From NCBI GenBank assembly GCA_033810155.1, contig JAPXKJ010000003.1, positions 24,639-88,638 on the forward strand: a stretch of 64,000 nt of DNA. The letters run 5' to 3'. Position 1 is the first letter of the stretch, and every line of letters begins with the position of its first letter. The DNA is from Bacillota bacterium (GTDB taxonomy: Bacteria; Bacillota; Sulfobacillia; Fermentithermobacillales; Fermentithermobacillaceae). The notes below the pieces were generated by a model. That model ran no database searches. It worked only from the letters and a program-made list of their open reading frames with translations, and was not told the DNA's origin. The translations under genes were made by a program, and so were the position numbers. Of this stretch, positions 5,866 through 24,541 are shown in pieces.

Positions 5866-6558
5866 TTAAGTACGTTGGTTGGCTAGTTCATCATATTTCA
5901 TTTTGAGACTCTTCATATCATCCAGCATAAGAGGTTTCTTGCCAGCCTCATCCCGCAAAACTGCCGCAGGATGAAATGTAACCAAATACATGATTCCATC
6001 TCTTTCAAACCACTTACCTCTATCTCTCGTAACTCTCAAACCCGGGTCTATGAGAGTTTGACAAGAAAGAGCCCCGAGAAGAACAATTATCCAAGGTTTA
6101 ATCAGGCGAATCTGGGCTGTGAGATTAGGAAGACACGCTTTGACTTCCTCATCAGTCGGCATCCTGTTTCCCGGCGGACGGCACTTGACTATATTCGTTA
6201 TGAAAACATCGCTTCTAGAGAACCCATAACCTTCCAGCATGGAGTCTAGAAGCTGCCCTGCCCGCCCGACAAAAGGCTTCCCTGTGTCGTCCTCTGTTTT
6301 CCCCGGTGCTTCTCCTATGAGCATTATACGTGCTTGGCGGTTGCCTTCACCAAACACCACACCTTTTGCTCCTTGTCTAAGCTGGCACTTTGTACACTGA
6401 AGTACGCGCTCTCTCAAAGCCCCCAAGTCGCCTATATTCGTAGGTTCCTTAGCAGGGGTTGGTTCAACTGCCGAAACTCGTTCCTCTAAGTCGCTGCTTT
6501 CAATCTTATCGGGATAGTCGAAAAGAGGACGTTGAAGCCACTCACTCTTTGTCGTCAA
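5866..6558 (-). CDS. uracil-DNA glycosylase, family 4 (Fe-S type)
   Basis: CTKCQL...GEAPG...HPAAVLR motifs typical of UdgA/family-4 UDG. Confidence 0.8.
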   Translation of the reverse strand: MTTKSEWLQRPLFDYPDKIESSDLEERVSAVEPTPAKEPTNIGDLGALRERVLQCTKCQLRQGAKGVVFGEGNRQARIMLIGEAPGKTEDDTGKPFVGRAGQLLDSMLEGYGFSRSDVFITNIVKCRPPGNRMPTDEEVKACLPNLTAQIRLIKPWIIVLLGALSCQTLIDPGLRVTRDRGKWFERDGIMYLVTFHPAAVLRDEAGKKPLMLDDMKSLKMKYDELANQRT

Positions 6559-7492: not shown

Positions 7493-7661
7493 TTCTCCGA
7501 CAGGCGCTAGTCACACTCACCTGCCCTTTGATCCTCCTTCCGATTGGATCTAGGCCTTCTGCGCGCTCTCATCATATATTATACAGTCATCGCCACTCAA
7601 AATGGTTCTGCGCTTTTGTGCTGTAACCCTCTAAGTCGCCGAGCAAAAAGAAACAAGTATC

Positions 7662-7706
7662 TCACAATTTGAAAGGGACGATAGAGCCCTTTTTGCTCTG
7701 CCGTCC
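7662..7706 (-). terminator. putative rho-independent terminator after the 7764..8888 gene
   Basis: Minus-strand RNA has the hairpin GGGACGGCAGAGC-AAAAAGG-GCTCTATCGTCCC followed by UUUCAAAUU, about 55 nt past the stop at 7764. Confidence 0.45.
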
Positions 7707-7763
7707 CTTAGTTTATCAGCGCATTACTGTTCGCTTCTATCTTCTACATCCGCCAGAATAGCC

Positions 7764-8888: not shown

Positions 8889-8905
8889 TTACTCCTTCCT
8901 CCCCT

Positions 8906-10816
8906 CTATATGCCTTTGTCCGCATATTTCTTAAGTAGATCTGCCGGATACATATCCATAGCTATAAACCACTCTAACAGCTTCTGACTTCTCAAAGTCG
9001 GATCATCAGGAAGGGCGAGAGGACGTCCACGGCAGTCTATCACTACACCAACTACGCCACCGTTTACCTTGCTTTCAACAACACGCCCGTGCCCCTTACC
9101 TACATCAAACTGCCTTGTAGGATGAATAACCGCATCAACCGTGACGTTTTCTGGAATCTTTATGACTTTCATTGAACCGTAAGGAACAGATTCCTCGATA
9201 GTTTCACCATTATAGTCAATTGTTACTGTAACACATGGCTCCCCAAATTGTAGGTTGCCGCTAGGACCTATGGGAGCAATAGAGGTGCCTAGTTTCACCA
9301 GACAGTCCCTGTCGAAAACTTGCATCGCTGCTTTAGGATGAACGGAAGCAAGAATTCCTAGTTGCGGCATCATGAAAATGGAGTCAACTGCCAGCATGGT
9401 CTCAGCTTCTGGTTGGAACGCATCCAATAGCATCATTGCAGCTTGTGCACGCCTAGGTGCGTGAGAAAGCGTTCCTCCTGATCCAATCAACATGCCCAGA
9501 TCTGCCATGTCGATGTATGTGTCTCCTGAACCCGACTGCTCAAACGTATCGCCGATGGTCCTTTCCTTGTGAACACCCCTCAAGCCTACCGCAAGGCTCT
9601 TGTGGTGAACAAACGCAAGGCGAAGAGCCTCACGGGCAATTCCTTGCTCGAGTATGAGGTCGTCTAGAGTCTGTGGAATCGTAGTAGGACGGATCATTTT
9701 ATTCCTGATCCTATTTCTGAGATCTGCTTCATCGATGGAAAATGGGATCCATCTCGAAATATTAGCCATTCCGGCCTCAAGAAGCACGTTGCAAATCGAA
9801 TAACTCATCCCTAAGTTTGCCGATACGGTTCTATTGAAGAAATCTCCAAACACTGAAAACACGTCAGTAGTAGCTCCTCCGATATCGACGCCTATGACGC
9901 TCATGTCATACTCTTTGGCTGCTGTTTGCATGCAGTTACCCACAGCACCAGGAGTTGGCATTATAGGAACAGCTGTCCAGTTCATAAGCTTATTATATCC
10001 AGGTGCCTGTGCCATAACGTGTTCCATGAAAAGATTGTGGATAGCTTCCCTGGCAGGCCCAAGGACCTCTCTTTCCAAAACAGGTCTTAGGTTATCTACT
10101 ACCCTGAGATCTGTTTTTTCGCTAAGGATCTCTTCAATATGCTTTCTGGCATGTTTATTCCCGGCATAGATTATCGGTAACTTATACCCTATCCCAAGCC
10201 GTGGCTTGGGTTCGGCAGCAGAAATAAGCTCTGCAATCTCAACAACGTGTGTTATTGTACCTCCGTCGATCCCTCCGGAAAGAAGGATCATATCCGGTCT
10301 CAGATGCCGGATTCTTTGGATTTTCTCGTGAGGTTTTCTTCCATCGTCGACTGAAATAACATCCATTACTATTGCGCCTGCTCCAAGCGCGGCTCTCGCT
10401 GCCGATTCTGCGGTCATAGTCTTGACAACGCCAGCTACCATCATCTGCAATCCTCCGCCTGCAGAAGACGTTGACATGAAGATGTCGGCACCTGACCCAT
10501 CTGGTTGCCTAGGAGTAATAACTCCTGTGTCACTCAAAAAACGCCTGCCCGTGAGTTCCTCGATCTCTCTGATGGCGTTTCTCGCACCCATTGTAACATC
10601 TTCAAAAGGTGCCTCTACTGTGGTCGGTGCCTCTCCCCTTACAATAAGGCGATACTCGTCTTCAACCTTCTCGATGAGGATAGCTTTTGTTGTAGTCGAA
10701 CCGCAGTCGGTGGCCAGAACAGTATTGATCTCTGTATCTGGCGTGAACGCAGTTTTTTCTTCCTGCACGAACTCTTCCCCTCCCTCGCTGCCACATGTAG
10801 CGTAAATACCTAACAT
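8906..10816 (-). CDS. ASKHA-fold ATPase, GlmL/MutL-like (glutamate-mutase E2-type family) with a ~170-aa C-terminal extension, copy 1
   Basis: 636 aa. Phosphate-1 motif LATDCGSTTTKAILIE, phosphate-2 VGVDIGGATTDVFS and adenosine motif LIGSGGTLSHAP. The N-terminal DxGST.TK resembles the GlmL family. Confidence 0.65.
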   Translation of the reverse strand: MLGIYATCGSEGGEEFVQEEKTAFTPDTEINTVLATDCGSTTTKAILIEKVEDEYRLIVRGEAPTTVEAPFEDVTMGARNAIREIEELTGRRFLSDTGVITPRQPDGSGADIFMSTSSAGGGLQMMVAGVVKTMTAESAARAALGAGAIVMDVISVDDGRKPHEKIQRIRHLRPDMILLSGGIDGGTITHVVEIAELISAAEPKPRLGIGYKLPIIYAGNKHARKHIEEILSEKTDLRVVDNLRPVLEREVLGPAREAIHNLFMEHVMAQAPGYNKLMNWTAVPIMPTPGAVGNCMQTAAKEYDMSVIGVDIGGATTDVFSVFGDFFNRTVSANLGMSYSICNVLLEAGMANISRWIPFSIDEADLRNRIRNKMIRPTTIPQTLDDLILEQGIAREALRLAFVHHKSLAVGLRGVHKERTIGDTFEQSGSGDTYIDMADLGMLIGSGGTLSHAPRRAQAAMMLLDAFQPEAETMLAVDSIFMMPQLGILASVHPKAAMQVFDRDCLVKLGTSIAPIGPSGNLQFGEPCVTVTIDYNGETIEESVPYGSMKVIKIPENVTVDAVIHPTRQFDVGKGHGRVVESKVNGGVVGVVIDCRGRPLALPDDPTLRSQKLLEWFIAMDMYPADLLKKYADKGI

Positions 10817-10858
10817 ATAAACTACGACATCTGGTCTTTAAATCCTCTTAGTCTTCGA

Positions 10859-11281
10859 CTAATTTTCAATTGTTTCCTCTGGTTTGGATCCGCTACTCTT
10901 ATTGCTATCCATATTCAAGGCTTCATCTATCATGGAACCCTTCTTAGCTCTCCTTAATTGCTTTGATTTCTTCTTGCTTTCCTTTTCCGCTTTGCGTTCA
11001 GCTTCTTCCTCCATGGCTGCAAGTTCAAGGCGCTGAATCAAGAGTTCTACATTATCTCGCTGATCGAAAAAGTAGGCATAGTCTTCGAAAGTCTCAAAAA
11101 ACACGCCAACGATAGGCGCAAAAAAGTGCATGGCCTGTCCTCCAAAATAACTGAGGGGCTTGTTCATCTCGAGAAAGAAGATCGCAGGAACTGTCATTCC
11201 GAACTGCACAATCCGAGCCGCTATAGCTTCTATGATCTCATCCCGTCTAGCTTCGTCAATTGGCTCATGAAATTTCAGCAT
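10859..11281 (-). CDS. small hypothetical protein with a hydrophobic core and a Lys/Glu-rich tail
   Basis: 140-aa ORF between the two module copies. FFAPIVGVFF hydrophobic stretch, then EEEAERKAEKESKKKSKQLRRAKK. Confidence 0.5.
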   Translation of the reverse strand: MLKFHEPIDEARRDEIIEAIAARIVQFGMTVPAIFFLEMNKPLSYFGGQAMHFFAPIVGVFFETFEDYAYFFDQRDNVELLIQRLELAAMEEEAERKAEKESKKKSKQLRRAKKGSMIDEALNMDSNKSSGSKPEETIEN

Positions 11282-11419
11282 CTATGACACCTCCTCCTGG
11301 TTCCGGATAGCTTGTAACCCTCATATTGTACATCACTTTTGGCAAGTTGGCTAATCCAATGTGGCACCGCAATATAGTTGGGAGCTGGCCTAACAAGTAG
11401 GACTCTTTTTTGCGCCATC

Positions 11420-12778
11420 TTACAACATCTCTACATTTGCCCTTGGCACCACAACTTGTTCACCATTTGCAAGTAGTACTTTGACAACTGGCACTTTTGC
11501 TTCGGTCTCTATCATCACAGGCTCTTTTGTGATTTCAGCAATAGTCCCTACCGCACCAAAGTAAGGTTCGTTTACGATCCGTATTTGTGCACCTTGCCTC
11601 AGATCAATATCATACCGCACCGGCTTAGCTAATTCGCCTTCATAACCAAAGAACGAAACGATTATCTCGGGTCTTATGGCTCCCGCTCTGATCTGAGTTG
11701 CACCATTCATAGACGCCGTCATTCCCTCAAGAGCCGCTAGGGTTTCCCATACTTCCCTTCTCATGTCTAGATGCCCGAAGCCTTCCATGAGAATTACGGT
11801 TAGAGGTATATCTTCTTGGCCCGTGATGCCTATTCCGAGTTTTACGCCCAACGACTGAGTGAGATTGAAGTAGTTCGCCGTGCCTGTTACAACTCCTTTG
11901 GCTCCAACCTCTATAGCTTTTGAAAAAGCGTCATTCGTGGCAAAAGAGCCACCGATGATTATCTTGCCTTTGCAGTCATCGGTTATCATGTCAGCTTCTA
12001 GAACTTGGTCCGGTCCATTTGCAAGGACCATGATCTCACCATGAGTCTCACGACCAAGGCCAAAAATACCGTTAAGTTTGATCCCCGGGGTCTCAATGAC
12101 ACATCCACGCGTTTCCATTACTTCTGAAACACGTCCCTCTACATAAGCGTTGACTATGACTTCTCTGAAGGGACGCGAAATGGTGACTTTCCCGGTTTTG
12201 GTATCGATATCAGATATTATTCCGGATACAGGCGCAAGCGCTGTCTTCGTAAAGAAAGCCTGAGCCTCGCCCTTTTTTGCGATCATCTGACCTTTCTTTA
12301 CCTCTTGTCCCACTGTCCTCAGCATGTGTTGCGGTAATTCCTCGGGCTTACACTTTATCTCAAAGGCGACATCGAAGGTGACAGGAGGCTCCTCTTTGCC
12401 AAATTCCTCGCGTATAGTTACCCTTCCAGACCGGTCGGATATCGACTCTATAACGCCATCTGTAGGAGATTCCAGTTCTTTCCTACCATATAGCCCCTGC
12501 TCCGCCCTGGCAAAGACTTCTTTCGTCTTGACCGAATCGCCTATTCCTTTCAACATACTTTTGGAAAGCTGAGCCGGTTCGACTCCCAACAATCTAGCGG
12601 CAGGTATGACCCAGGGAATCCCAGGCTTCATAGCTATTTTGGCTACCGGTGTATCAGGTTTTACTATATCCCCCACTTCAACAAGCACTTCTCCTGGGAG
12701 AGGCAGCTTGCGAGTTTTTCTCACAAGTGCAATCTGGCTTTTAACATTAGTCGGCAAATCTGCTAAAAAGTCCGCCAC
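11420..12778 (-). CDS. uncharacterised partner protein of the ASKHA ATPase, copy 2
   Basis: Paralog of 7764..8888. Start reassigned to GTG at 12778 (AAGGAGGG 7 nt upstream), which aligns with the copy-1 N-terminus. The track's longer ORF to 12847 adds a basic N-terminal tail and a 100-nt overlap. Confidence 0.6.
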   Translation of the reverse strand: MADFLADLPTNVKSQIALVRKTRKLPLPGEVLVEVGDIVKPDTPVAKIAMKPGIPWVIPAARLLGVEPAQLSKSMLKGIGDSVKTKEVFARAEQGLYGRKELESPTDGVIESISDRSGRVTIREEFGKEEPPVTFDVAFEIKCKPEELPQHMLRTVGQEVKKGQMIAKKGEAQAFFTKTALAPVSGIISDIDTKTGKVTISRPFREVIVNAYVEGRVSEVMETRGCVIETPGIKLNGIFGLGRETHGEIMVLANGPDQVLEADMITDDCKGKIIIGGSFATNDAFSKAIEVGAKGVVTGTANYFNLTQSLGVKLGIGITGQEDIPLTVILMEGFGHLDMRREVWETLAALEGMTASMNGATQIRAGAIRPEIIVSFFGYEGELAKPVRYDIDLRQGAQIRIVNEPYFGAVGTIAEITKEPVMIETEAKVPVVKVLLANGEQVVVPRANVEML

Positions 12779-14678
12779 GCTTCTTCCCTCCTTTTCCACC
12801 TTCCGACCTCTTCGCCGGGTACTTTTCTTGCAGCTCACGAATTTCATCCATTGGGTACGCGTTCATACCTTGAATCCAAGATGTGAGCAAATTGATTCGT
12901 TCCACGTTATCTTCGGGCAACTCCAGAGGGCGTCCTCTACCATCTAGGATGACACCGACCAAACCGCCGTGGATCTCTTTCTCCAACGCCTTACCTTTTC
13001 CATCACCTACATCTATGTTCCCACCGTGAGGTTGTATCCTACAGACGGCAGTTTCGCCAACCCCTAACGGTATAACCTGGAGTTCTCCTCCTGTAACCTT
13101 GTGCTCTACTACAGTACCATCTTCCATGGTCATCTTAACCGTAGCTGCCACCTGGCCACGTTTGAACGATCCAACCGGGGCTATTACGGTCCCTAGTCTT
13201 ACAAGACAGTCTTTCTCGAAAACCTCGGCAGATACCTCAGGGTATACCGACGAAAGAACACCAAGATGAGGCATCATGAATATCGAGTCCACAGCTAGAT
13301 AGGTTACCCCTGAAGGCTCAAAAGCATCGATGAGCATCAAAGCAGCCTGTTGTCGTCTCGGAGCATGCGAAAGAGCTCCGCCTGAACCAACTAGCATATC
13401 AAGATGGAGCATGTCTATTATGTCGCGTCCGGTAGCCGATGCTACTTTGCCTCGACCCGTAACCTGAAGTCCCACCTCTTCTTTTTCTACCTTCTTGGCA
13501 AGACTCTTGTGGTGTTCAAAACTAAGGCGAAGCGCTTCCCTGGCAATAGCCTGTTCAACTATTAGGTGGTACATTGTTTGTGGAATTGTAGTAGGTCTTA
13601 TCATCTTATTTGCAACCCAGTCCGAGATGCGAGACTGGTCGACCTCGAAAGGTACCCATCGCAGAATGTTATCGAATCCTGCTTCTTCCAAAACGTTGCA
13701 AATAGAGTAGCTCATACCTAGGTTCGCAGATACCGTCCTGGTGAAAGTGTCCTCGAAGTGTGAAAACACGTCAGTAGTAGCGCCGCCAATGTCTACACCT
13801 ATGATATTCTCATTATTCCTTTCTGCAAGGAGCATAATAAGTTTACCCACTGCACCAGGAGTGGGCATAATCGTCGTATCAACCCATTCCATGAGAGTCC
13901 CGTACCCTGGAGCTTGAGCCATGACGTGATTCATGAAAATCTCATGAATTGCTTCCCTGGCAGGTCCCAAGTTTTCAATATCGTGCCGGGGCCTCAAATT
14001 GTCGACTATGTTCACGTCCATGTCCGCCCCGCATATTTCCATAACAAGGTCTTGGGCGTCTTTATTGCCTGCGTATATTAGTGGCAGTTTGTACGTCGCC
14101 CCAAACCTCGGCTGCGGGTTCGCTTGTTTTATAATCTCGGCAATTGACGCTATATAAGCAACTGAGCCGCCATCTACACCACCTGACATGAGGATAATGT
14201 CAGGCCGCAATTCTGTAATCCTGGTGATCTGCTCCGATTGTGATCTACCGTCATCTACCGAGATTACATCCAACACAACCGCACCTGCACCTAAGGCAGC
14301 ACGGTGAGCTGAACTGGCACTTATTGTCTTTACTAATCCTGCAACCATCATCTGCAATCCTCCACCCGCAGATGATGTCGAAACGTAGATATCTACCCCC
14401 TTGTCACCTTCCTTGGGCCGAATCAAATTGCCTGACTCATCTAGAATTGGCCTATCAATAAGCTCCTCGATGCGCCGAATTGATTTCTTGACCCCAATCA
14501 TGACATCTTCCCATGGTTCCTCAACTGTGGTCGGCATTTCTCCACGAGTTACCAATCGATATTCGTCGCCACGTTTCTCGATAAGTATGGCTTTAGTAGT
14601 GGTCGACCCAACGTCGGTGGCAAGGATAGACTCTACCGGTTTGTTATCAAGGCCTTCCTTTCGCTGGATTTCTTCCAT
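12747..14678 (-). CDS. ASKHA-fold ATPase, GlmL/MutL-like, copy 2
   Basis: 643-aa paralog of 8906..10816 with ILATDVGSTTTKAILIE, GVDIGGATTDVFS and LVGSGGALSHAP. Confidence 0.65.
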   Translation of the reverse strand: MEEIQRKEGLDNKPVESILATDVGSTTTKAILIEKRGDEYRLVTRGEMPTTVEEPWEDVMIGVKKSIRRIEELIDRPILDESGNLIRPKEGDKGVDIYVSTSSAGGGLQMMVAGLVKTISASSAHRAALGAGAVVLDVISVDDGRSQSEQITRITELRPDIILMSGGVDGGSVAYIASIAEIIKQANPQPRFGATYKLPLIYAGNKDAQDLVMEICGADMDVNIVDNLRPRHDIENLGPAREAIHEIFMNHVMAQAPGYGTLMEWVDTTIMPTPGAVGKLIMLLAERNNENIIGVDIGGATTDVFSHFEDTFTRTVSANLGMSYSICNVLEEAGFDNILRWVPFEVDQSRISDWVANKMIRPTTIPQTMYHLIVEQAIAREALRLSFEHHKSLAKKVEKEEVGLQVTGRGKVASATGRDIIDMLHLDMLVGSGGALSHAPRRQQAALMLIDAFEPSGVTYLAVDSIFMMPHLGVLSSVYPEVSAEVFEKDCLVRLGTVIAPVGSFKRGQVAATVKMTMEDGTVVEHKVTGGELQVIPLGVGETAVCRIQPHGGNIDVGDGKGKALEKEIHGGLVGVILDGRGRPLELPEDNVERINLLTSWIQGMNAYPMDEIRELQEKYPAKRSEGGKGGKKRGGLFSRFAD

Positions 14679-14774
14679 CCGATTCCCTCCTCAAAGTCCT
14701 TTGTTCATCCAACAGACAATCTAGACTGGCGCATTCTCTATTGCGCCATAATTCTACTTTCACATTTGCACACA

Positions 14775-15617
14775 TCATTCTTTGGGTTTGATGTTGCGAA
14801 TTCGCTCAATTGCGGCCCGGATCCCTCCTCTTTCCTTCTTCTCTTTTTTGACAAGTTCGTCTTTCTCACTAAACGCCTGTTCAGGCATGGTGAGTTTCGA
14901 GGAAACTATTTCGAGCACCGTGTCTTTGTTTGAACCATCGGGGTAGTAATAGAGAAACATGCCCTGCTTCATTCGTCCCCTCACCGTCCGCGTATCGTGT
15001 GAAAGGAGCACACCGTCGTGGAATTGATAGTAAGTCAAGAACTTATCCCAAGAACGGATATCCCTTGCCAAAAAGGTCCTATACCCAACCGTTTGCTCTG
15101 TAATCACATATTTTACTGGGAACAAGTAAACGGCCAACCTGTTCAAAAGTATAAGTGTCATCACAGCCACGAAGAAAAACTGCGGAAACGCCCAGTAAGC
15201 AAGCCCTATACAACCTGCTACAGATGCTACCACTAGGGTGGAGACGCCCGGACGAAGCGGAAGGAGCCAAACCTTCCACGAGTATAATTCGACATCCTCT
15301 TTTTCTTGTTCGGCTGCTTGGGGGATGCTCTCTCCGGTAATCCCCTTACCTGCGTTGTTCTCAGATTCGCTTCTCGCTTCAGCATCGCCTTTTTTGGGCA
15401 GCGGACCTCTGAGATATGAAGGTCTGCTTGCATCAGGAGTCTGCTTGTCAGTGCCCTTCGACTCATCTTTTGCTTCCGTCATTGTAACCTCCCCAATGAA
15501 CACGTTTGTTGCCACTTGTATCATATGCCCTGGGCATTTCCTACCTGATTCTACGATCCTCGGGAATATCCTGCAACTTGATGATTGCGGTCCGCACAAT
15601 AGCCCAACCATGCTCAA
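14775..15617 (-). CDS. hypothetical membrane protein
   Basis: Two hydrophobic segments (WKVWLLPLRPGVSTLVVASVAGCIGLAYWAF, FFVAVMTLILLNRLAVYLF). ATGA start/stop overlap with the upstream DmpA-like gene. Confidence 0.5.
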   Translation of the reverse strand: MSMVGLLCGPQSSSCRIFPRIVESGRKCPGHMIQVATNVFIGEVTMTEAKDESKGTDKQTPDASRPSYLRGPLPKKGDAEARSESENNAGKGITGESIPQAAEQEKEDVELYSWKVWLLPLRPGVSTLVVASVAGCIGLAYWAFPQFFFVAVMTLILLNRLAVYLFPVKYVITEQTVGYRTFLARDIRSWDKFLTYYQFHDGVLLSHDTRTVRGRMKQGMFLYYYPDGSNKDTVLEIVSSKLTMPEQAFSEKDELVKKEKKERGGIRAAIERIRNIKPKE

Positions 15618-16750
15618 TCGATAACCTGATGCCTTGCCAAGATCTCGAGCACTGTGTCAATAGGTAGACCGAATCTTGTATGCCCATCGCGCCCTACCAT
15701 AGTCTCCGCCATGAACAATGAGTTTAGCACACTCTCTTCAACCGCCTCTACGCAGGCTCTGAACAACAGGCCTAAGTATGGAGAATCATCGCTTATGTAC
15801 CTCTGCTCAGATAATTCTGGGGTATCAGAATCTGACACCTTATTAGCTGTTGAGAAGGCCAATGCAAAATCGCCACTACCATGGGAGAACACAGACCCAG
15901 TGCGAGCTAAGCCACCCTGACAGCGCCGGGCGACCCGCAACAGCTGCCTGTCTGATAAGGGGGCATCTGTTCCCACAATAATTATGATCGAACCTGGAGG
16001 CGTCTGAGATTGCGCTCCAATGGACCTCTTGAGTTCTATTCCTACGGGGATCCCGCAAATCAGCAGATCTTCAAGTCTGCCAAAGTTAGACATCACCAGA
16101 ACACCCAATGTCCATCGTTCATCCATCTCCAATACTCTCGAAGAGGTACCAATCCCCCCCTTGAATCCTAGACACGACATACCGGTCCCTCCGCCGACGT
16201 TGCCTTCATCTACAGGACCATCTGTAGCATGGTAAAGTGCAGAAAAGACGTGTTCCTTCTTTACGTGTCTCCCTCTTATGTCGTTGAGATATCCATCATT
16301 ACATTCCAATACGCATGGATTAACCGTTCCCGCAGATACACCTATCTCCGGGTTACCTTCCAACATGTACTCACAAAGGCTATCCCAAGCCAAACCTACG
16401 CTAAGGGTGTTTGTAAGAATAATAGGTGTTTCTATGGTGCCGAGTTCCTGTATCTGTGCAATGCCTGTAGCCTTACCAAAACCGTTGATTACGTGTATGG
16501 CACCTCTCACTTTGTCTTTAAACAAATTGCCTCCGTGAGGCAAGACCGCAGTAACTCCCGTTCGAACTGGGCCCTTTCCCGGGTCAAGTGGGCCTTCACC
16601 TTCAACTATCGTGCAATGACCTACAAGAACTCCCGGAACATCTGTTATAGAATTCAAAGGACCAGTTGGCAAAACCCCTGTTGATAACTTGCATTCTCGA
16701 AACCTGCGTCGAGAGTACTCGGTAGACCCTACTGAAATGTCATGTCTCAT
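15614..16750 (-). CDS. DmpA/OAT-fold L-aminopeptidase / D-Ala-esterase-amidase (peptidase S58 family)
   Basis: 378 aa with PGVLVGHCT, GTGMS and GSGDFALAFST motifs characteristic of the DmpA family. Confidence 0.7.
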   Translation of the reverse strand: MRHDISVGSTEYSRRRFRECKLSTGVLPTGPLNSITDVPGVLVGHCTIVEGEGPLDPGKGPVRTGVTAVLPHGGNLFKDKVRGAIHVINGFGKATGIAQIQELGTIETPIILTNTLSVGLAWDSLCEYMLEGNPEIGVSAGTVNPCVLECNDGYLNDIRGRHVKKEHVFSALYHATDGPVDEGNVGGGTGMSCLGFKGGIGTSSRVLEMDERWTLGVLVMSNFGRLEDLLICGIPVGIELKRSIGAQSQTPPGSIIIIVGTDAPLSDRQLLRVARRCQGGLARTGSVFSHGSGDFALAFSTANKVSDSDTPELSEQRYISDDSPYLGLLFRACVEAVEESVLNSLFMAETMVGRDGHTRFGLPIDTVLEILARHQVID

Positions 16751-16771
16751 TACTAGCTAATAACCTCCAAA

Positions 16772-17479
16772 TCAACGACTAAACTCTTTTGCAGCTTCGA
16801 CAAATGCCTTAAACGGTTTGATAAACAAAGGATTATGTCTCCACATTCCTTCTGGATGCCACTGAATAAGCAGTACAAATCCTTGTCTAGCTTCCACCAC
16901 TTCTACCACCCCATCAAGGGCTCTACCCGACACGGTCAAACCATCTCCCGGATCCCTAACCGACTGATGGTGATACGAATTAACGACCAGACGGCGGGTT
17001 TCAAAAATGTCTGCCGCCATGGAACCTTCCTCTAGAATTACCTCGTGCGTCCCGTACCATCTCGGGGCATCTTGATTGTGTTTCATTGCTCCCCCAACCT
17101 GGGACGGTATATCCTGCACCAGCGAACCGCCTGCAGCTACGTTAACTACCTGGCATCCTCTGCAAATGCCCAGAATGGGCACCCTGCGTTCAAGAGCCAG
17201 TCTAGCAACGTTAAACTCTAGTTCGTCGAGCCTAGGGTTTATGGAACCAAGTTTCTGATGCGGACGTTCCATATACCTTTGAGGATCTATATCGGCGCCT
17301 CCCGGAAATACTACTCCATCTACCCTCGACACAAGCTCCTCAGCTTCCGATTTGCCTACCATCGGAATCAAAAGAGGTATGCCACCTCCTTCTAGCACTG
17401 CATCAACATAGGTATACTGCAATACCGAAGCCTGTCTTTCTTCATTCCAGCTAGCCGTTATACCAATAATTGGTTTCAA
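16772..17479 (-). CDS. class I glutamine-amidotransferase-like peptidase C26 (gamma-glutamyl-GABA hydrolase PuuD family)
   Basis: GICRGCQ catalytic Cys and a WHPE-type His motif. Confidence 0.75.
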   Translation of the reverse strand: MKPIIGITASWNEERQASVLQYTYVDAVLEGGGIPLLIPMVGKSEAEELVSRVDGVVFPGGADIDPQRYMERPHQKLGSINPRLDELEFNVARLALERRVPILGICRGCQVVNVAAGGSLVQDIPSQVGGAMKHNQDAPRWYGTHEVILEEGSMAADIFETRRLVVNSYHHQSVRDPGDGLTVSGRALDGVVEVVEARQGFVLLIQWHPEGMWRHNPLFIKPFKAFVEAAKEFSR

Positions 17480-17480
17480 C

Positions 17481-18560
17481 TTAAATCCCTTCTTTCAAGA
17501 AAGCATCTACATACGCGAAATTCGCGGGCGCTCCTCCTGTATGGAGAAAAACTATCGCCTCATCTTTATCATATAATCTGTTTCGCACATCGCCTATCAG
17601 ACATGCAAGCGCCTTACCTGTGTAAACCGGGTCGGTGATTATCCCCTCGCTTCGCGCAAGAGTAAGTATGGCTTCTATGCCTTCAGGAGTTGGCACGGCA
17701 TATCCAGGACCAACATAGTCCTCTGTAATGCTTATGTTGGATTTCACATCGTCCTTGGTGATATTAAGAATTCGATCCTTTATTTCACGAAGGTCACACG
17801 AGCCACCCTCCGTTTCGGTCTCGGTATCTAGGCACTCTAACTTTTCTTTTATTAGTCCAATAGCTTCCATTACCAGTTCTAAGACTCTAGCTTCTTTCTT
17901 AGCGGCGCCAGGGCTTACCGCAACTCCCTTAATGGAAAAAGAAAGTTGGTATATGAGTTTGCCAAGCAATAGACCTGCCAAAGTCCCTGACGAACCGGTC
18001 GCAACATACACAGCGCTAGGGGAGACTCCCGCGTCCACAAAATCACGCGCAAGTTCTGCAGCACAACCTATGTAACCTAGAGTTCCTATGCAGTTAGAGC
18101 CGCCTACCGGAATAACATAGGGGTTTTTGCCCTCCCGTTCTAAATCTGCCGCTGTTTCTTCTATTACATCTTCAGAGAGTCTTTGCCCGGTAAAAACTAG
18201 CCGCGCTCCCAAGATATGATCTAACAGTAAGTTCCCCTGCCTAGTACCGGGATCATCACCGTCTAGAACAAGAACCGGCTGCATACCAAGTTTCACAGAA
18301 GCAGCTGCCGTCATCCTAGCATGGTTCGACTGGGGCCCTCCTGATGTAATCACTGTGTCGCATTGTTTCGCAAGCGCGTCTCCAAGAAGAAACTCCAGTT
18401 TCCTTGCCTTGTTTCCGCCTAGAGCAAGCGCAGTAGCGTCATCTCGTTTGATGAATATCTGTGGTCCTCCTAATACCTGGCTGAACCGTGGAGTTCCTTC
18501 AAAAGGAGTGGGCAAATTGGCAAGATGCACCCTTGAGAATCCCAAAGTATTTTTTTGCAT
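17481..18560 (-). CDS. PLP-dependent ACC deaminase / D-cysteine desulfhydrase family enzyme
   Basis: GGNKARKLEFLLGDA signature holding the PLP lysine. The start was moved to ATG at 18560 (GAAGGGGG 8 nt upstream); the track ORF begins at an upstream TTG. Confidence 0.75.
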   Translation of the reverse strand: MQKNTLGFSRVHLANLPTPFEGTPRFSQVLGGPQIFIKRDDATALALGGNKARKLEFLLGDALAKQCDTVITSGGPQSNHARMTAAASVKLGMQPVLVLDGDDPGTRQGNLLLDHILGARLVFTGQRLSEDVIEETAADLEREGKNPYVIPVGGSNCIGTLGYIGCAAELARDFVDAGVSPSAVYVATGSSGTLAGLLLGKLIYQLSFSIKGVAVSPGAAKKEARVLELVMEAIGLIKEKLECLDTETETEGGSCDLREIKDRILNITKDDVKSNISITEDYVGPGYAVPTPEGIEAILTLARSEGIITDPVYTGKALACLIGDVRNRLYDKDEAIVFLHTGGAPANFAYVDAFLKEGI

Positions 18561-18596
18561 GTCAAAACCCCCTTCATACAAGAAATCATGATATAT

Positions 18597-18947
18597 CTAT
18601 ATCTCCTTAAGTCCCAATGAGATGGATAAGCCTTCATCAACTCTATCCATTATGTCTTTGTCGAGGTGCGCTACCCATTTCTTCAGCCGCCTTTTGTCTA
18701 TGGTCCTAATCTGCTCAAGTAAAATGACAGAGTCCTTTTCGAGATTAGAAACGCTTGCAGGCAACTCAACATGAGTGGGAAGCTTTGCTTTTTGGATCTG
18801 CGAACTTATGGCCGAAACAATGACCGTAGGACTGTATTTATTCCCTATATCGTTTTGCACGATTAGAACGGGTCTGAATCCGCCTTGTTCTGAACCAAGC
18901 ACGGGATTCAAGTCTGCAAAATAGATATCTCCTCGAGAAGGCTCCAA
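18597..18947 (-). CDS. mazF: type II toxin MazF/PemK family endoribonuclease (EndoA-like)
   Basis: Near-identical in pattern to B. subtilis EndoA: [28 protein letters not shown]...KAKLPTHVE...[13 protein letters not shown]. Confidence 0.9.
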
Positions 18948-19286
18948 TCAGGTCTTCCTCCATTTGTCTAAGTTCTCAGTACGCACGATCCTTCCTACCA
19001 CCTCGGCGTAGTACTCATCATCGTAATCATTGCGAGGAAAACAAGCAAAATCGCACCATATCTCCTCAGCAAGCACTTGGTTTATCTCCGCCATTTCTAG
19101 GTATCCAGTTTTCATAGATTCAAGCATATTGTCCCTTTTTATCTTCTCAATATAAAAACAACATGCCTCTTCAATAAACAAAGACCGGGTCTTGCTCATT
19201 CTCCTTGCAATGTCATCTATATCTGCAAGTACACCTTCGGGAAGTTTTGTCACAAACTCTTTCATCCTGTCCAAATCTAAGCCCAC
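18948..19286 (-). CDS. mazE: RHH/CopG-type antitoxin (EndoAI/MazE-like)
   Basis: Ends 1 nt before the mazF start. Has the LPE..L..ID....R....R...IEEA..Y....R......GY.EMA.IN pattern of EndoAI. Confidence 0.7.
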   Translation of the reverse strand: MGLDLDRMKEFVTKLPEGVLADIDDIARRMSKTRSLFIEEACCFYIEKIKRDNMLESMKTGYLEMAEINQVLAEEIWCDFACFPRNDYDDEYYAEVVGRIVRTENLDKWRKT

Positions 19287-19322
19287 CCTTTGGCAGGCCC
19301 TTCACCTCTCTTCGCAGAGTTT

Positions 19323-20972
19323 TCATTGCCTCTGGCCGCGTTCTATCGCTGCCCTACTCTGAGGCAAGCATTCTACGATGTCTCCGGCGAGTATCCCATA
19401 GGAGCCCTTGTTCTCATATGCTATCTCGCCTGCAGTTCCATGCCAAAACACCCCAACAACGGCACTGTCTAGAGGAGCCAAACCCTGAGCTCCCAGACCT
19501 GCAATTACCCCTGTCAAAACATCTCCGGCCCCCGCTGTAGCCATGGCAGCAGTACCCGAAGTATTAATAAACAGTTGACCTTCTGGCCCAGCCGTACATG
19601 TTCCGGCGCCTTTGAGACAGACAACGCTCTTAGATTCCATGGCTGCTTTTAACGCAATACGCGGCCTATCCCGGTTCAATTCTGACACACCCATATTACA
19701 TAGTGTTGCCATCTCTCCGGGATGAGGCGTAAGTATGAACTCACCGTGGAGTTTTGCAAGATATGGCAATCCGCCCAATTCCGCCAAACTAAAGAGCGCA
19801 TCTGCATCTATCACACAAGGTATGTTCAACACGTGCGGCAACATTTCCTTCAAGAATCCTGTCTGAGAAAGTCCCCTGCCCCATCCGGGCCCTATAGCTA
19901 CCGCGTCGCTTTTTTGTATGTTGTCTTTTATCATTCTAAATGATATGGGATCAGGCGTAAAGACCTCAGAATCTCCGCAAGGAAGCACCATCACCTCTGG
20001 TACCGCCGACGCACAGGCTTCGTAAATCTTGCCGGGGCAAATGAGAGTAACAGTCCCGGCGCCTGCTCTAAGAGCACCCTTTGCACACAAAACAGACGCA
20101 CCTGCCATCCCGAGTGAACCTGCTATCACCGTAACATGACCTGACATCCCCTTGTGGTGGTCTGCTTGTCTCACGGGCAAAAGCGGCCTCACATCTTGTG
20201 AGAACACGGCCTGTGTCGTAACCTCAATTGGATTCGTAAGCAAATCCTGGGCACTTTCGGAAGTGGTGTGCTGTCTCACCGATCCCCCTATACTAACTAC
20301 ACGATCAGGCGGAAAACTCAGGTTCTCTACTATTACATCACCTGCAAACATCCTGCCAGGGTAGGACAAGAGACCTATTTTGGCATAGCCCATAGTTACA
20401 GTGACAGTAGCCCTTATGCACGGCTCATATACTTCTCCTGTATCCGCAGATACCCCTGTAGGTATATCACAAGCGACAATCGGTGCTCCTTGAGAATTTG
20501 CCCATTCTGTGGCGAGATCCAGGGGAAATCTAGGACCCTCTTTTGCCCCAATTCCCAAAAGAGCATCAATTATGAGGTCAGGCGAGTCTAGCTGATCGAG
20601 GATCGCTTGCGGATTTTTATAATGGTCAAGAGAATGCACTTTGATTGGATAGGCTTTCAACATCTCATAGTTGGTAAACGCTTCGTAAGGCAGACCTGCT
20701 TCTTTCCCAAAAAAGCCCACCTTAACTTCATATCCATGCGCCGCTAGATGCCTTGCGGCGCAGAAGCCATCGCCACCGTTTTGACCGGGACCCGCAAGAA
20801 CAACTATGGTTCCTTTACTTCTGGGTTTACGGATACCCCTCCCATCTAAAAGAGCCATGGAATGATAAGCCAGGGCCCTCCCCGCATTTTCCATAAGGAT
20901 AAGAGCCGGAACGCCCATTTTCTGAACCATGCGATCTATCTCGCGCATTTGTTGTGAAGATACCAGGACCAC
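19323..20972 (-). CDS. nnr: bifunctional NAD(P)H-hydrate repair enzyme (YjeF N-terminal epimerase + ADP-dependent dehydratase)
   Basis: 549 aa. N-terminal VLAGPGQNGGDG and C-terminal GPGWG...TPHPGE...GAGDVLTG. Confidence 0.9.
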   Translation of the reverse strand: MVLVSSQQMREIDRMVQKMGVPALILMENAGRALAYHSMALLDGRGIRKPRSKGTIVVLAGPGQNGGDGFCAARHLAAHGYEVKVGFFGKEAGLPYEAFTNYEMLKAYPIKVHSLDHYKNPQAILDQLDSPDLIIDALLGIGAKEGPRFPLDLATEWANSQGAPIVACDIPTGVSADTGEVYEPCIRATVTVTMGYAKIGLLSYPGRMFAGDVIVENLSFPPDRVVSIGGSVRQHTTSESAQDLLTNPIEVTTQAVFSQDVRPLLPVRQADHHKGMSGHVTVIAGSLGMAGASVLCAKGALRAGAGTVTLICPGKIYEACASAVPEVMVLPCGDSEVFTPDPISFRMIKDNIQKSDAVAIGPGWGRGLSQTGFLKEMLPHVLNIPCVIDADALFSLAELGGLPYLAKLHGEFILTPHPGEMATLCNMGVSELNRDRPRIALKAAMESKSVVCLKGAGTCTAGPEGQLFINTSGTAAMATAGAGDVLTGVIAGLGAQGLAPLDSAVVGVFWHGTAGEIAYENKGSYGILAGDIVECLPQSRAAIERGQRQ

Positions 20973-21009
20973 TTCTCAAAACCTCCTTCGCCTAGGCTAA
21001 TGTCGAAGT

Positions 21010-21408
21010 TTATTGCCTAGGTACTCCAATGGCAACTGCAGCTGCCATCTGGCCATCGTGAGTAATCGAAATCTCTATGGATTCTAGGTTTTCCTCTTCC
21101 ATTAGGCGCGACGCATTACCTTTCAGACAAGCGACCGGACGCCCTTTTTCCCTACGTACGATCTCAATATCAGTCCACGGGATCTTTGGCCATCCCTCCC
21201 CCAAAACCTTCATGACCGCTTCCTTGGCAGCAATAGAGCCAGCCATTCTCTCTATCTGTCTCCTAGGCCTAGGACTAAGCAAGCAAAACCTGATTTCATC
21301 GCATGTGAAGAATCTTTCGAGAAAGAGGTTTTGCCTTGTGCTGTACATCTCTTCGACTCGAGCTAACGACACCAAGTCAAGTCCTATCCTGAAACCACAC
21401 GAGTCCAT
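21010..21408 (-). CDS. acpS: holo-[acyl-carrier-protein] synthase
   Basis: GLDLVSL...IAAKEA...GRP. Start placed at ATG 21408 (AAAGGGG 8 nt upstream); the track ORF starts upstream at 21489. Confidence 0.8.
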   Translation of the reverse strand: MDSCGFRIGLDLVSLARVEEMYSTRQNLFLERFFTCDEIRFCLLSPRPRRQIERMAGSIAAKEAVMKVLGEGWPKIPWTDIEIVRREKGRPVACLKGNASRLMEEENLESIEISITHDGQMAAAVAIGVPRQ

Positions 21409-21595
21409 CAGCATTGCCCCTTTTAAAAAAACCAAAATCGCGCCTTCCTTTGCCCACAGATCATACAGGAAGGCGCTTCTACATTCCATACGTCACGCCG
21501 CTATCCCTTCAGTGCCTTCACCTTGTTCTTGATTACTTTTATGTTGCAATTTCACCTCTGATTGCAGTATGAGTAAGTAAGAGGAGGTTAGTCAT

Positions 21596-23041
21596 TTGAT
21601 AGAAAATTTTAGTGTTAGAGAATTTGAAGACTATGTCAGCAAATTGATGGAAAAGACCAAGGTCCCTGGTATCGCTGTAGGGATCGGCGTTGATGGCAAT
21701 ATGGAGTACTTCAAGGGTTTTGGCCTTTCAGATGTAGAAAAGAACCAGCCAGTAACAGAAGACACAGTATTCGGTCTCGCCTCTGTAACCAAATCCTTTA
21801 CGGCTCTTTGCATAAACCTTTTGGCCGAAGAGAAGAAACTGTCGGTATCCCACCCTGTAAAGCGATATCTTCCAGAATTCAGTATTCTCCGATCGAACAC
21901 AGCCGACAAGATGACGCTACACTCTTTCTTGACACATACCTCGGGAATACCACCTCTTCCATCCCTCGATTACGTAAACGAACTCAGCATTACTGTAGAA
22001 GAGTATTTGGCTGATCCGATGGCTTTGAGAAACAAACCTGACGGTTGCTTGCAAGGGAAACCTGTGATTCGAACCAACAAAGATCTACTGCGATTTATCG
22101 CAAATTACAGTTTCGAACCGCTTGGCCGACCGGGACAATACATGAGTTATTCCAACGATTGCTTCTCCCTGTTAGGCGAGGTAATCGAAAGGGTTTCGGG
22201 TATCTCGTTTGAGCAGTATTTGAAGAAAAATGTCCTGGAGCCATTGGAAATGGACCATACCTTCATTGATGTGGCCGCTCTGTCTGATTTCGAATTTCAA
22301 GGGCTATACTATCGCGACGAAAAAGGTAACCTAGCCAAAGCTCCTTGGAAACACAGAGAAACGTTCGTATCGTCAGGATCGTTGAAATCATCTACTAAGG
22401 ATCTGCTTAGATACACTAGTTTATACATTGAAAAAGGCTTCTGGGGAAGTAATAGGATCTGCGAAACGGCAACCGCAGATAGAATAACATCGCCTTACTA
22501 TTCTATCGAAGGCGGAGGTTACTACGGCTATGGATTCCAGGTAGAACCCAGATACTGTGATGGGGTCACTTTAGTACATCACGGTGGAAACATAGTCGGA
22601 GTGGCCTCATATATTGGGTTCATACCCGAAAAGAAACTCTCTGTCTGCGTATTGTCAAATCTGAGCGGTTTTCCTGCTTCTAAAGTGTTTTTTGCTGCTA
22701 TAAACGGAATTCTGAATCTCCCACGGAACTACCACGAACCGAAAGTGCCCGCAGCGAGCATTCCTCCTGAACATTCGGCAAAGTTTACAGGGCTTTACGC
22801 ATCGGGAGAAGGTACCGAGGTTTCTATCGCCTTCGACGGTAAAAACCTCTACTATATCGTACACGGCAAGAACAGAAAAAGCGTGTATCCCGCAATACCG
22901 ACCAGTTACAATTCTATACGTGTAGACAGAGATATTGACCTCGAAGATGATGAAGATAGCACCGATTTATACTTCTTGTTTGACGCAAAGGGCGATGTCT
23001 GGGCAATGCGGCATGGCCTTAGACTCATTAGAAAAGTATGA
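21596..23041 (+). CDS. beta-lactamase-fold serine hydrolase (class C / D-aminopeptidase-like)
   Basis: SVTKSF is an SxxK active-site motif near the N-terminus of a 481-aa protein. Confidence 0.7.
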   Translation: MIENFSVREFEDYVSKLMEKTKVPGIAVGIGVDGNMEYFKGFGLSDVEKNQPVTEDTVFGLASVTKSFTALCINLLAEEKKLSVSHPVKRYLPEFSILRSNTADKMTLHSFLTHTSGIPPLPSLDYVNELSITVEEYLADPMALRNKPDGCLQGKPVIRTNKDLLRFIANYSFEPLGRPGQYMSYSNDCFSLLGEVIERVSGISFEQYLKKNVLEPLEMDHTFIDVAALSDFEFQGLYYRDEKGNLAKAPWKHRETFVSSGSLKSSTKDLLRYTSLYIEKGFWGSNRICETATADRITSPYYSIEGGGYYGYGFQVEPRYCDGVTLVHHGGNIVGVASYIGFIPEKKLSVCVLSNLSGFPASKVFFAAINGILNLPRNYHEPKVPAASIPPEHSAKFTGLYASGEGTEVSIAFDGKNLYYIVHGKNRKSVYPAIPTSYNSIRVDRDIDLEDDEDSTDLYFLFDAKGDVWAMRHGLRLIRKV

Positions 23042-23089
23042 TAGAGAAAGAGTGATCGTGAACCATCACCGAGTGGAAGGAGCAGGGAT

Positions 23090-24541
23090 ATGTTTAAAGT
23101 AAACAACTTCGAATTAGACCAAGTACCTTATGCAGATATAGTAGAGGACTGCAGCGCAATCATAGTAGGAAAGAAGGCATCAGCAACCGGCGAGGTCCTT
23201 TTTGGCCACAATGAGGATGACCGAGGCAACAACGTAATGGTGCAATACAGAGTCCCACGGAAAAAGCACAACCCTGGAGAGTATCTCACTTTCGAACCCG
23301 AGTGCGCCAAGATCCCACAAGTCCCTGTGACCTGGGGGTATATTTGGTCCGAAACACGAGCAAGTTGGAAAGCTCCATTTAGCGACACTTTCATAAACGA
23401 ATGGGGAGTCGCGATAGCCAGTGATAGCTGCTCAAATTCAAGAGAGGATATGCCAGAACTAACAAACGGCGGCATAGGATATGGCTTAGGTCATATAGTG
23501 GCTCAAAGAGCACGAACAGCAAGAGAAGGCGTCGAAATTGCAGCGGGCCTTCTGGATAAGTATGGGTACACAGCATCCGGTCGGGCATACCAGATTGTCG
23601 ACAACAATGAAGGTTGGGTGCTTCAAGTTGTAAAGGGCAAGCACTACGTAGCAAAGAGAGTGCCAGATGATGAAGTCATGTTCATTCCAAACTGGTACAC
23701 AATTCGAAATGTGGATCTGTCTGACAAAAATAACTACATTGCGTCTGACGACTTAATCACGTATGCAATTGACCGGGGATGGTATAAGCCTAGCGTCCCT
23801 TCCGATTTCAGCGATTTTGACTTCGCCATCGCCTATCAGGATCCCAATCAGAAACAAGACGGCAATATCTACCGCCATAAAAATGCTCTCCGCATGATCT
23901 TGGGTAAGGAACCCGAAGATGTGAGGGTATTCTCTGTAAGTCCGAAAGAGAAATTGGGAGTAGAAGATGTGAAGAAAATCTTAAGAACACACTACGAAGG
24001 CAAAGACGACGACTTGTCAAACGGATATTCTGTGAACCCTCATAAGACCGGCATCCGCACCATATGTACTTCGACCACAATCGAGAGCATAGTCGTGCAG
24101 TTCAGAGAAAAGCCTGAACTCACCTGTGTATGGCGTGCACTGCTAAATCCATGTACAAGCCCCTATGTACCTTGGTATCTGGGCATTGACAAAATACCTA
24201 CCGGCTTTGGTTGGATTTCACCGGAAACAGGGTTGGCTAATCACTTCAATGTGCCTCTTGCGGACCTTTCATATCGACCAGGCAGAGCATGGTGGGCATT
24301 CCAAGACGTGCAGGATTTGGCAGATGAATCTTATGCCGAGTTCATCGGAAGAATCTCGGAGTCTAGAGATGCTCTCGAAGAAATGTGGCGCAAATCTCAA
24401 AACGAATTTGAAGCACGGGTTTCGGAGACTCTATCAGATGACCCTGAGAAAGCGATAAGGATGCTCACAACCTACACTGATAAGCAAGCGCGTTTGGCCT
24501 GGACAACATGGAGAAAACTATTCCAAGACTTACTTAGCTAA
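23090..24541 (+). CDS. C69 family dipeptidase
   Basis: 483-aa protein with N-terminal DCSAIIVGKKASATG..LFGHNED, consistent with the N-terminal-nucleophile Cys of peptidase C69. Confidence 0.7.
   Translation: MFKVNNFELDQVPYADIVEDCSAIIVGKKASATGEVLFGHNEDDRGNNVMVQYRVPRKKHNPGEYLTFEPECAKIPQVPVTWGYIWSETRASWKAPFSDTFINEWGVAIASDSCSNSREDMPELTNGGIGYGLGHIVAQRARTAREGVEIAAGLLDKYGYTASGRAYQIVDNNEGWVLQVVKGKHYVAKRVPDDEVMFIPNWYTIRNVDLSDKNNYIASDDLITYAIDRGWYKPSVPSDFSDFDFAIAYQDPNQKQDGNIYRHKNALRMILGKEPEDVRVFSVSPKEKLGVEDVKKILRTHYEGKDDDLSNGYSVNPHKTGIRTICTSTTIESIVVQFREKPELTCVWRALLNPCTSPYVPWYLGIDKIPTGFGWISPETGLANHFNVPLADLSYRPGRAWWAFQDVQDLADESYAEFIGRISESRDALEEMWRKSQNEFEARVSETLSDDPEKAIRMLTTYTDKQARLAWTTWRKLFQDLLS

Follow-up and report, generated by a model that had tools for sequence, protein, structure and literature searches.

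The genes treated here have their closest described counterparts in four families: the DmpA- and BapA-type aminopeptidases (peptidase family S58), PuuD, the hydrolase of gamma-glutamyl-GABA (GABA, gamma-aminobutyric acid), with its relatives in family C26, the D-cysteine desulfhydrase DcyD, which depends on pyridoxal 5'-phosphate (PLP), and GlmL, the MutL accessory protein of glutamate mutase. They lie close together on the minus strand of a stretch of 64,000 nucleotides of contig JAPXKJ010000003.1 (positions 24,639 to 88,638) from a Bacillota bacterium of the Fermentithermobacillaceae; this whole stretch is called the window below. A preliminary description had taken four co-directional genes (14775-18581) for an amino-acid and peptide catabolic run directly upstream of a module of MutL/GlmL-like ATPases of the ASKHA (acetate and sugar kinases, Hsc70 and actin) type, and had drawn from this context a suggestion on the substrate of the module. 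Our analysis favours, with a probability of about 60%, another organisation: the "four-gene run" would be two adjacent units that stand side by side through ancestral Bacillota gene order. Unit 1 would comprise the PLP (17481-18560), C26 (16772-17479) and S58 (15614-16750) genes, a tight operon following mazEF. Unit 2 would begin at the membrane gene (14775-15482), which codes for a transmembrane (TM) hairpin with a PH-like (pleckstrin homology-like) domain and heads the MutL-like ATPase/partner module, and it would have its own sigma-H-type promoter. The two units would not be functionally coupled. The features concerned, all on the minus strand, are:

17481..18560 (-): PLP-dependent enzyme of the D-cysteine desulfhydrase / ACC deaminase family (ACC, 1-aminocyclopropane-1-carboxylate), 359 aa from ATG 18560; the listed open reading frame (ORF), 17481-18581, runs up to TTG 18581
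16772..17479 (-): peptidase C26 / class-I glutamine-amidotransferase-like gamma-glutamyl amidase, 235 aa, TTG start
15614..16750 (-): peptidase S58, a DmpA/BapA-type self-processing N-terminal nucleophile (Ntn) aminopeptidase, 378 aa
15548..15572 (-): AGGATAT-N11-GTAGAAT, a motif like a sigma-H-type promoter, which ends (3' side) 65 nt before the membrane gene's ATG
14775..15482 (-): membrane-anchored PH-like domain protein, 235 aa, most likely the first gene of the MutL-like module; listed ORF 14775-15617
12747..14678 (-): first MutL/GlmL-like ASKHA ATPase (MutL1) of the neighbouring module, given as context

The four minus-strand ORFs were found as described, and the family assignments hold as well: a PLP enzyme of the PF00291/TIGR01275 type, a C26 peptidase (PF07722), an S58 peptidase (PF03576) and a protein with two TM helices. 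The distance of 96 nt given for the first ATPase is exact, from the stop codon of the membrane gene to the MutL1 start at 14678. With corrected starts the gaps are 36 nt (MazF to PLP), 1 nt (PLP to C26), 21 nt (C26 to S58), 131 nt (S58 to membrane gene) and 96 nt (membrane gene to MutL1). The PLP gene most likely starts at ATG 18560, which has a Shine-Dalgarno sequence (AAGGGGG) 7 nt upstream, and not at TTG 18581. The ATGA overlap reported between the membrane and DmpA-type genes is not borne out: the junction is CGATTGAGCA, so a TTG would overlap the TGA (TTGA). Co-directionality is uninformative at this locus because the minus strand holds 51 of the 60 ORFs of the window, and 85% of its coding bases.

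To describe the neighbourhood of the module we used 78 genome loci around MutL-like homologues (individual loci carry L numbers below), whose ORFs were clustered and searched with profiles. The counts refer to 79 loci, 18 of the Bacillota type and 61 others. The closest MutL-like homologues in genomes come from metagenome-assembled genomes (MAGs) of Candidatus Fermentithermobacillaceae (81% and 79% identity). Near the module, the PLP gene was found in 5 Bacillota-type loci, C26 in 12 and S58 in 10; the corresponding numbers in the other loci are 0, 1 and 0, the lone C26 being on the opposite strand. Two housekeeping genes served as controls: TsaE (13 of 18 versus 0 of 61) and AcpS (8 of 18 versus 1 of 61). 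They are kept about as often as the enzyme genes, and the adjacency would therefore reflect inherited gene order with no specific functional link. Thus the adjacency is real and conserved in one Bacillota lineage but, judged from these gene neighbourhoods, it is not distinguishable from background synteny. Conservation had been proposed as the check on the catabolic context, and it stands in part: at least one gene of the enzyme island lies co-directionally upstream of the module in all 12 Bacillota-type loci whose upstream flank reaches 5 kb or more, but the arrangement is restricted to loci of this type and occurs at rates like those of tsaE and acpS. Since the enzymes flank the module only there, as the housekeeping genes do, this context says little about the substrate of the ATPase.

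The island itself is bounded by AcpS-Nnr-Alr-MazEF on one side, and on the other by the module followed by a uracil-DNA glycosylase and TsaE-TsaB-RimI-TsaD. MazF is followed by PLP or by C26 in L002, L003, L025, L032, L080, L082, L111 and L128. The order PLP-C26-S58 recurs in seven loci (L003, L007, L025, L032, L092, L111 and L128), with S58 identity down to about 50%, and C26-then-S58 in 8 genome loci. A metagenome scan with the S58 alignment yielded 80 loci at 47-69% identity, 10 of them with the C26-then-S58 pair; the module lies downstream in 8 of these 10, while one of the two exceptions has a downstream flank of just 418 nt and in the other different genes follow. A C26/S58/PLP-type island upstream of the module was also seen in 8 metagenome loci. 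Conversely, the module is missing from all 38 S58 loci that lack a neighbouring C26 and extend at least 1.5 kb upstream, so S58 homologues of comparable similarity function without it. In relatives the island is variable in content and may add Asparaginase_II (PF06089), an M55 D-aminopeptidase (PF04951), DUF4438 and an M20 amidohydrolase, all Pfam-confirmed, as is the adjoining alanine racemase; other genes are interposed in L007, L017 and L025.

These gene orders bear on the idea that the three enzyme genes have no link at all, i.e. that they are unrelated housekeeping hydrolases in the dense, one-strand genome of a peptidase-rich peptide fermenter. The class of the organism, DTU015, is predicted to form spores and ferment both peptides and amino acids (PMC10215811). 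The strand bias would suit this idea, as would the M42, C69 and S12-type (PF00144) genes elsewhere in the window and the absence of the PLP gene from L002, where C26 and S58 are kept. The single nucleotide between the PLP stop and the C26 start and the 21 nt between C26 and S58 speak against it, as do the recurrent C26-S58 and PLP-C26-S58 orders, and we regard it as very unlikely.

The membrane gene is the point at which the preliminary segmentation goes wrong, the run being made up of three enzyme genes plus a gene that heads the ATPase module. Across phyla the module has the order membrane PH-like protein, protein of about 120-140 aa, MutL-like ATPase, partner, DUF6754 (PF20539), and three multi-TM proteins (c5, c7 and c6); DUF6754 and these three are sometimes repeated two or three times. 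We found this order in Zixibacteria, Eisenbacteria, WOR-3, Ignavibacteria, Marinimicrobia, Nitrospira, Planctomycetota and Deltaproteobacteria, the MutL-like ATPases being 54-57% identical between phyla. In a profile search the membrane gene was co-directionally upstream of the module in 27 of the 79 loci, 14 of them outside the Bacillota type, including Eisenbacteria, Zixibacteria, Gemmatimonadetes and deltaproteobacterial MAGs. By group the membrane gene is present in 13/18 Bacillota-type and 14/61 other loci, the small protein in 18/18 and 34/61, and DUF6754 beside the module in 6/18 and 22/61. The membrane gene is thus most likely a component of the module, and its first gene, and no part of the catabolic run.

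The start of this gene matters for the same question. The listed ORF begins at TTG 15617, a start that we rejected: the extension is not conserved and has no Shine-Dalgarno sequence, and its first codon would precede the conserved promoter motif described below. It is doubtful because the open frames of the closest orthologues cannot exceed 229-234 aa, because gene callers give 235 aa for membrane proteins 89-98% identical to this one, and because ATG 15482 has its own Shine-Dalgarno sequence (GGGGAGG, 15494-15488). The gene therefore most likely starts at ATG 15482, 131 nt past the S58 gene. The protein has two adjoining hydrophobic helices by hydropathy (78-98 and 102-120 in the model), and the predicted structure suggests a PH-like beta-sandwich with a C-terminal helix. 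Neither this protein nor the 140-aa protein of the module matched a family in Pfam (to E = 1) or NCBIfam. As the nearest described proteins we take the membrane-flanked bacterial PH domains of the Pfam bPH_2/YdbT-like type. The predicted layout resembles theirs in combining a two-helix membrane hairpin, a small PH-like beta-sandwich and a C-terminal helix. The window protein differs from them in having no Pfam match, in that its modelled first strand precedes the TM hairpin, and in that proteins of its type are always encoded at the head of a MutL-like module.

When the spacer between the S58 and membrane genes was aligned between the window and its closest relatives, two conserved blocks stood out from an otherwise diverged sequence: GCAGGAWWW, then after 11 nt GTMGAAT, with the Shine-Dalgarno sequence and the ATG coming next. 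Both blocks occupy the same place in L002, L003, L080, L081 and L082. They fit the sigma-H consensus RNAGGAWWW / RNNGAATWW (PMC8510167). The pattern AGGAWWW-N11-12-RNNGAAT has its sole match in the window, on either strand, at 15548-15572, for 0.58 expected; in 588 kb of related loci it has 15 plus-strand matches, of which 6 are the spacer site. An extracytoplasmic function (ECF) sigma factor was considered, as the motif contains CGTC, and rejected since the spacing suits the sigma-H consensus; ECF promoters have a spacing of 16-17 nt, unlike this motif. The conserved sigma-H-type motif between the S58 and membrane genes points to separate transcription units, and the case for a separate promoter upstream of the membrane gene is good but indirect. 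A scan of 7000-21600 for sigma-70 consensus promoters and terminators gave counts not above those of shuffled sequence, and no terminator in any spacer. The spacer also holds two short palindromes on the minus strand, TGCGGACCGCA (15586-15596) and ATGCCCAGGGCAT (15525-15537), the latter just downstream of the promoter motif; neither is conserved in L002 or L003.

Downstream of the membrane gene the comparison is with GlmL and the GlmL-related ornithine-degradation protein. The window ATPases share with them a PF13941 match over about 470 residues (414-421 bits). They differ in being about 640 aa long with a C-terminal beta-rich extension, in falling below the GlmL, Or-4 and TIGR01319 cut-offs, and in being paired with a barrel-sandwich-hybrid partner and membrane proteins instead of B12-dependent mutase genes, none of which was seen in the annotated parts of the window or of the module loci. 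An identification as GlmL was rejected, the equivalog scores being 234.9 and 227 bits against a required 475. The nearest solved folds to the predicted MutL1 structure are FtsA and PilM, while a search of PDB sequences with MutL2 and partner B gave no meaningful match. A literature search on DUF6754, TIGR01319, PF13941 and GlmL/ASKHA found nothing relevant, and the module, which is widespread (more than 10 phyla), is apparently undescribed.

Several details of the module may be added. Examples are the window (7764-15482, minus strand) and L061, L066, L020, L078, L044 and L049, among others. In the available DNA the DUF6754 set is absent from the window and from the other DTU015 loci; searches of the window by tblastn and profiles detected no DUF6754, c5, c6, c7, Asparaginase_II, M55, DUF4438, M20 or alr. 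As listed, the partner-A ORF (11420-12847) shares 101 nt (12747-12847) with the 3' end of MutL1. In relatives the similarity of the partner begins just past the MutL stop codon; the true start of partner A is probably further downstream than listed. Directly after partner B, a 316-aa protein (6542-7492, minus strand) shows a sub-threshold match to DUF483 (22.7 bits against 25) and recurs at the same position in six loci (window, L002-L004, L007 and L008). The module may have in it an additional, lineage-specific component.

What lies upstream of the module changes with the lineage. Glycine-cleavage genes (gcvT, gcvH, gcvPA and gcvPB) are found directly upstream of the membrane or small protein gene in L035, L044, L049, L068 and L070, and likewise in L023, L029, L048, L074 and L078; these loci are labelled WOR-3, Eisenbacteria or TA06, or belong to several MAGs without phylum label. 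In Marinimicrobia a trio of RlpA-like, YegS and CdsA genes takes the same position. The upstream neighbours of the module are thus lineage-specific.

A rival to the two-unit reading joins the enzyme genes with the MutL-like module in one functional supra-operon of this lineage; its ATPase and partner would import, process or act on a compound produced or used by the S58, C26 and PLP enzymes, be it an amino acid, a D-amino acid, a gamma-glutamyl or a small-peptide compound. Over 7764-18581 such an operon would meet short gaps between co-directional genes and no terminator-like site in any spacer, together with the conserved sigma-H-type motif at 15548-15572. The island precedes the module in the 12 Bacillota-type loci cited above and the module follows C26-S58 in most of the metagenome loci that carry the pair. 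In L092 the series is unbroken from Alr to the partner (Alr, PLP, C26, S58, AsnII, M55, DUF4438, membrane gene, DUF6754, c5, c7, c6, MutL, partner), and the GlmL relatives serve amino-acid mutases, as the names of the NCBIfam families indicate. Some of our observations weigh in the same direction, against two uncoupled units. The 12/12 persistence extends down to a MutL identity of about 55%, which could also reflect selection for linkage. The absence of a terminator-like hairpin after the S58 gene makes read-through from unit 1 into unit 2 possible. The promoter motif was found in no genomes but those of the closest clade, which are not independent of one another, and a single match per window is within chance given the expectation above. 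Finally, the glycine-cleavage operon, which is amino-acid catabolic, adjoins the module in other phyla and is a faint echo of the idea put forward in the preliminary description. Against the supra-operon stand the near absence of the enzymes from the 61 other loci, the equal retention of tsaE and acpS, the variable and interrupted island, the conserved promoter motif between the units and the uninformative strand bias. Moreover, the module has membrane proteins as its universal partners and FtsA and PilM as its nearest folds; its ATPases miss the GlmL equivalog score, and the annotated parts of the window show no B12 mutase gene. On balance we hold a supra-operon to be unlikely, and the inference from the enzymes to the substrate of the ATPase is weakened both by the assignment of the membrane gene to the module and by the motif that splits the units.

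The two-unit reading leaves the three enzymes to be considered for themselves. The S58 protein matches PF03576 over profile positions 1-306 of 307 (402.2 bits against a gathering score of 23.9) and no NCBIfam model. Among solved structures the best relative is 2DRH, the Pyrococcus horikoshii "D-aminopeptidase" (407 bits); BapA (3N2W) and DmpA (1B65) come next. Gly253-Ser254 is invariant in 8 orthologues and is followed by IIIIVGTDAP, which aligns to N-S LLIVIATDAPL of BapA. A DmpA-type enzyme is cleaved at Gly-Ser, the sequenced N-terminus of its beta-chain being SIIVVIATDA (PMC9570944). From this match the self-processing Ntn apparatus looks intact. Like DmpA and BapA, the protein is a full-length PF03576 member (matches of 223-407 bits to 1B65, 3N2W and 2DRH) and keeps the Gly-Ser self-cleavage site and the GSGD and NFG motifs. 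Unlike them, it has an uncharacterised archaeal protein as nearest solved relative and sits in a conserved C26-S58 pair, which is not described for DmpA or BapA. A look-up of the exact protein returned only a 2.3-kb Logan contig with no useful gene context.

The C26 protein matches PF07722 (Peptidase_C26) over its full length (203.8 bits), with Lin1909 (3FIJ), the Pseudomonas aeruginosa "probable glutamine amidotransferase" 7D4R and PuuD (6VTV) as best solved relatives. In alignments with all three, GICRGCQ (104-110, the Cys motif) and QWHPE (206-210, the His/Glu motif) are kept, and by this measure the Cys-His-Glu triad is intact. Annotation as PuuD (equivalog NF008471) was rejected: the score is 108.7 bits for a cut-off of 266 and, unlike PuuD, the window gene has no polyamine or GABA pathway genes nearby. 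Its best solved relative has no assigned function.

The PLP enzyme belongs to fold-type II (PF00291, 144.9 bits) and scores 286.9 bits against the cut-off of 289.4 for the D-cysteine desulfhydrase/ACC deaminase subfamily TIGR01275, the match being split by an insertion. It lies below all equivalog cut-offs (CuyA, the best NCBIfam model, 332 versus 450; DcyD 249 versus 429), and its closest solved relatives are the D-cysteine desulfhydrases 7YSK and 4D8T (225-237 bits). The PLP lysine lies within GGNK (48-51). From the alignment with DcyD, and by comparison with the Pseudomonas ACC deaminase sequence, we take YTGK (313) and HTGG (340) to mark the places of Glu295 and Leu322, so that both specificity positions would carry Thr. 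ACC deaminase activity depends on Glu295 and Leu322 (Pseudomonas numbering), and DcyD-like enzymes have Thr in their place (PMC4048297). An ACC deaminase was rejected on these residues and on the TIGR01274 score (172 versus 392); by sequence the enzyme is DcyD-like. With DcyD (Salmonella 4D8T; CuyA and XcbE are also named in this comparison) it shares the fold type, the GGNK lysine and the two Thr, and it differs by missing the equivalog and, marginally, the subfamily cut-offs and by the insertion of about 30 aa. This insertion is acidic (LECLDTETETEGGSCDLREIKDRILNITKDD..., residues ~232-263 of the 359-aa form, window ~17770-17865). It splits every profile match in two, is common only to the Bu02 orthologue (L003), and is not in L025, L032 or the solved D-cysteine desulfhydrases.

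Taken together, PLP-C26-S58 is an ordinary three-gene hydrolase/lyase operon behind mazEF, from well-known families. The island would serve to remove peptides whose linkage or stereochemistry is non-standard (gamma-glutamyl, D- or beta-aminoacyl), with the deamination of a small D- or beta-substituted amino acid as the task of the PLP enzyme. Such a clearance would fit a peptide-fermenting organism of class DTU015.

A narrower role is suggested by the genes on the mazEF side of the island. In L025, L032, L092 and L111 an alanine racemase gene (alr) lies between nnr (or acpS) and the mazE-like gene, a region to be compared with 18948-20972 of the window; no alr was found in the 64-kb window. 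The island could thus be a set for the salvage of cell-wall peptides and D-amino acids tied to alanine racemase, with its position due to alr-mazEF linkage and not to the module. S58 and M55 would free D-Ala or Gly from stem-peptide fragments, with C26 cutting the gamma-D-glutamyl bond and a D-amino acid being deaminated by the PLP enzyme, a division of roles that is as doubtful as the salvage set itself. In favour of this set, alr is immediately upstream of mazEF or of the PLP gene in L025, L032, L092, L111, L128 and L133, an M55 D-aminopeptidase (PF04951) belongs to the island in L025, L006, L008, L092, L102 and L133, and the PLP enzyme is of the D-cysteine desulfhydrase type. The window itself, however, has no alr, M55 or M20 gene and the run has no transporter or muropeptide-specific enzyme. 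The stereospecificities are family-level expectations, S58 enzymes also cleaving L- and beta-aminoacyl substrates, e.g. beta-alanyl peptides. The order acpS-alr-mazEF is furthermore a conserved Firmicutes backbone order, for which we know of no pathway meaning. We therefore consider a salvage set possible but doubtful; it is compatible with two adjacent units.

The remaining features of the window that were considered are the following:

18948-19286 (-): mazE-like antitoxin gene upstream of MazF, given as context
18597-18947 (-): MazF/PemK toxin (PF02452, 125 bits), directly upstream of the PLP gene
1-489 (-): fragment of an M42 aminopeptidase, elsewhere in the window
21596-23041 (+): PF00144 beta-lactamase-fold (S12-type) protein, 481 aa
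23090-24541 (+): C69 dipeptidase

The last three confirm the M42, C69 and beta-lactamase-fold genes of the preliminary description. The PF00144 and C69 genes (21596-24541, plus strand) form a divergent pair upstream of acpS, and L002 has an ORF of about 470 aa at the position and in the orientation of this pair. S12 enzymes include D-aminopeptidases, which would suit a D-peptide theme. Rfam at gathering thresholds gave no match over the entire window, hence no riboswitch or leader.

A bolder combination can be formulated, in which the whole hydrolase island (S58, C26, M55, Asparaginase_II, DUF4438, M20 and the DcyD-type PLP enzyme) and the PH-anchored, FtsA/PilM-like ATPase module would be one functional unit in a single Bacillota lineage. 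We think this improbable. One example, which we hold to be just as speculative, would be a sigma-H-switched membrane machine active in stationary phase or at sporulation onset, taking up or remodelling cell-wall-derived or other D- or gamma-linked peptides for the island enzymes. Were the enzymes and the module a single unit, the enzyme genes would be the first substrate clue for an orphan system of more than 10 phyla, and the glycine-cleavage neighbours a second.

With two adjacent units, which we prefer, the four-gene observation itself matters little, since the three enzymes come from well-known families of hydrolases and PLP enzymes and are ordinary there. Nor should a substrate be assigned to the MutL-like ATPase module from the neighbourhood of the PLP, C26 and S58 genes. 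The interesting part of the locus is the neighbouring module. Its boundary is redrawn, so that it most likely begins one gene earlier, at the membrane-anchored PH-like protein with what would be its own conserved promoter motif. Its companions being DUF6754 and multi-TM proteins and its nearest folds FtsA and PilM, the module shifts from "amino-acid metabolism" towards a "membrane-associated ASKHA machine". If active, the sigma-H-type motif would place this machine under stationary-phase or sporulation-onset control in a spore-forming lineage.

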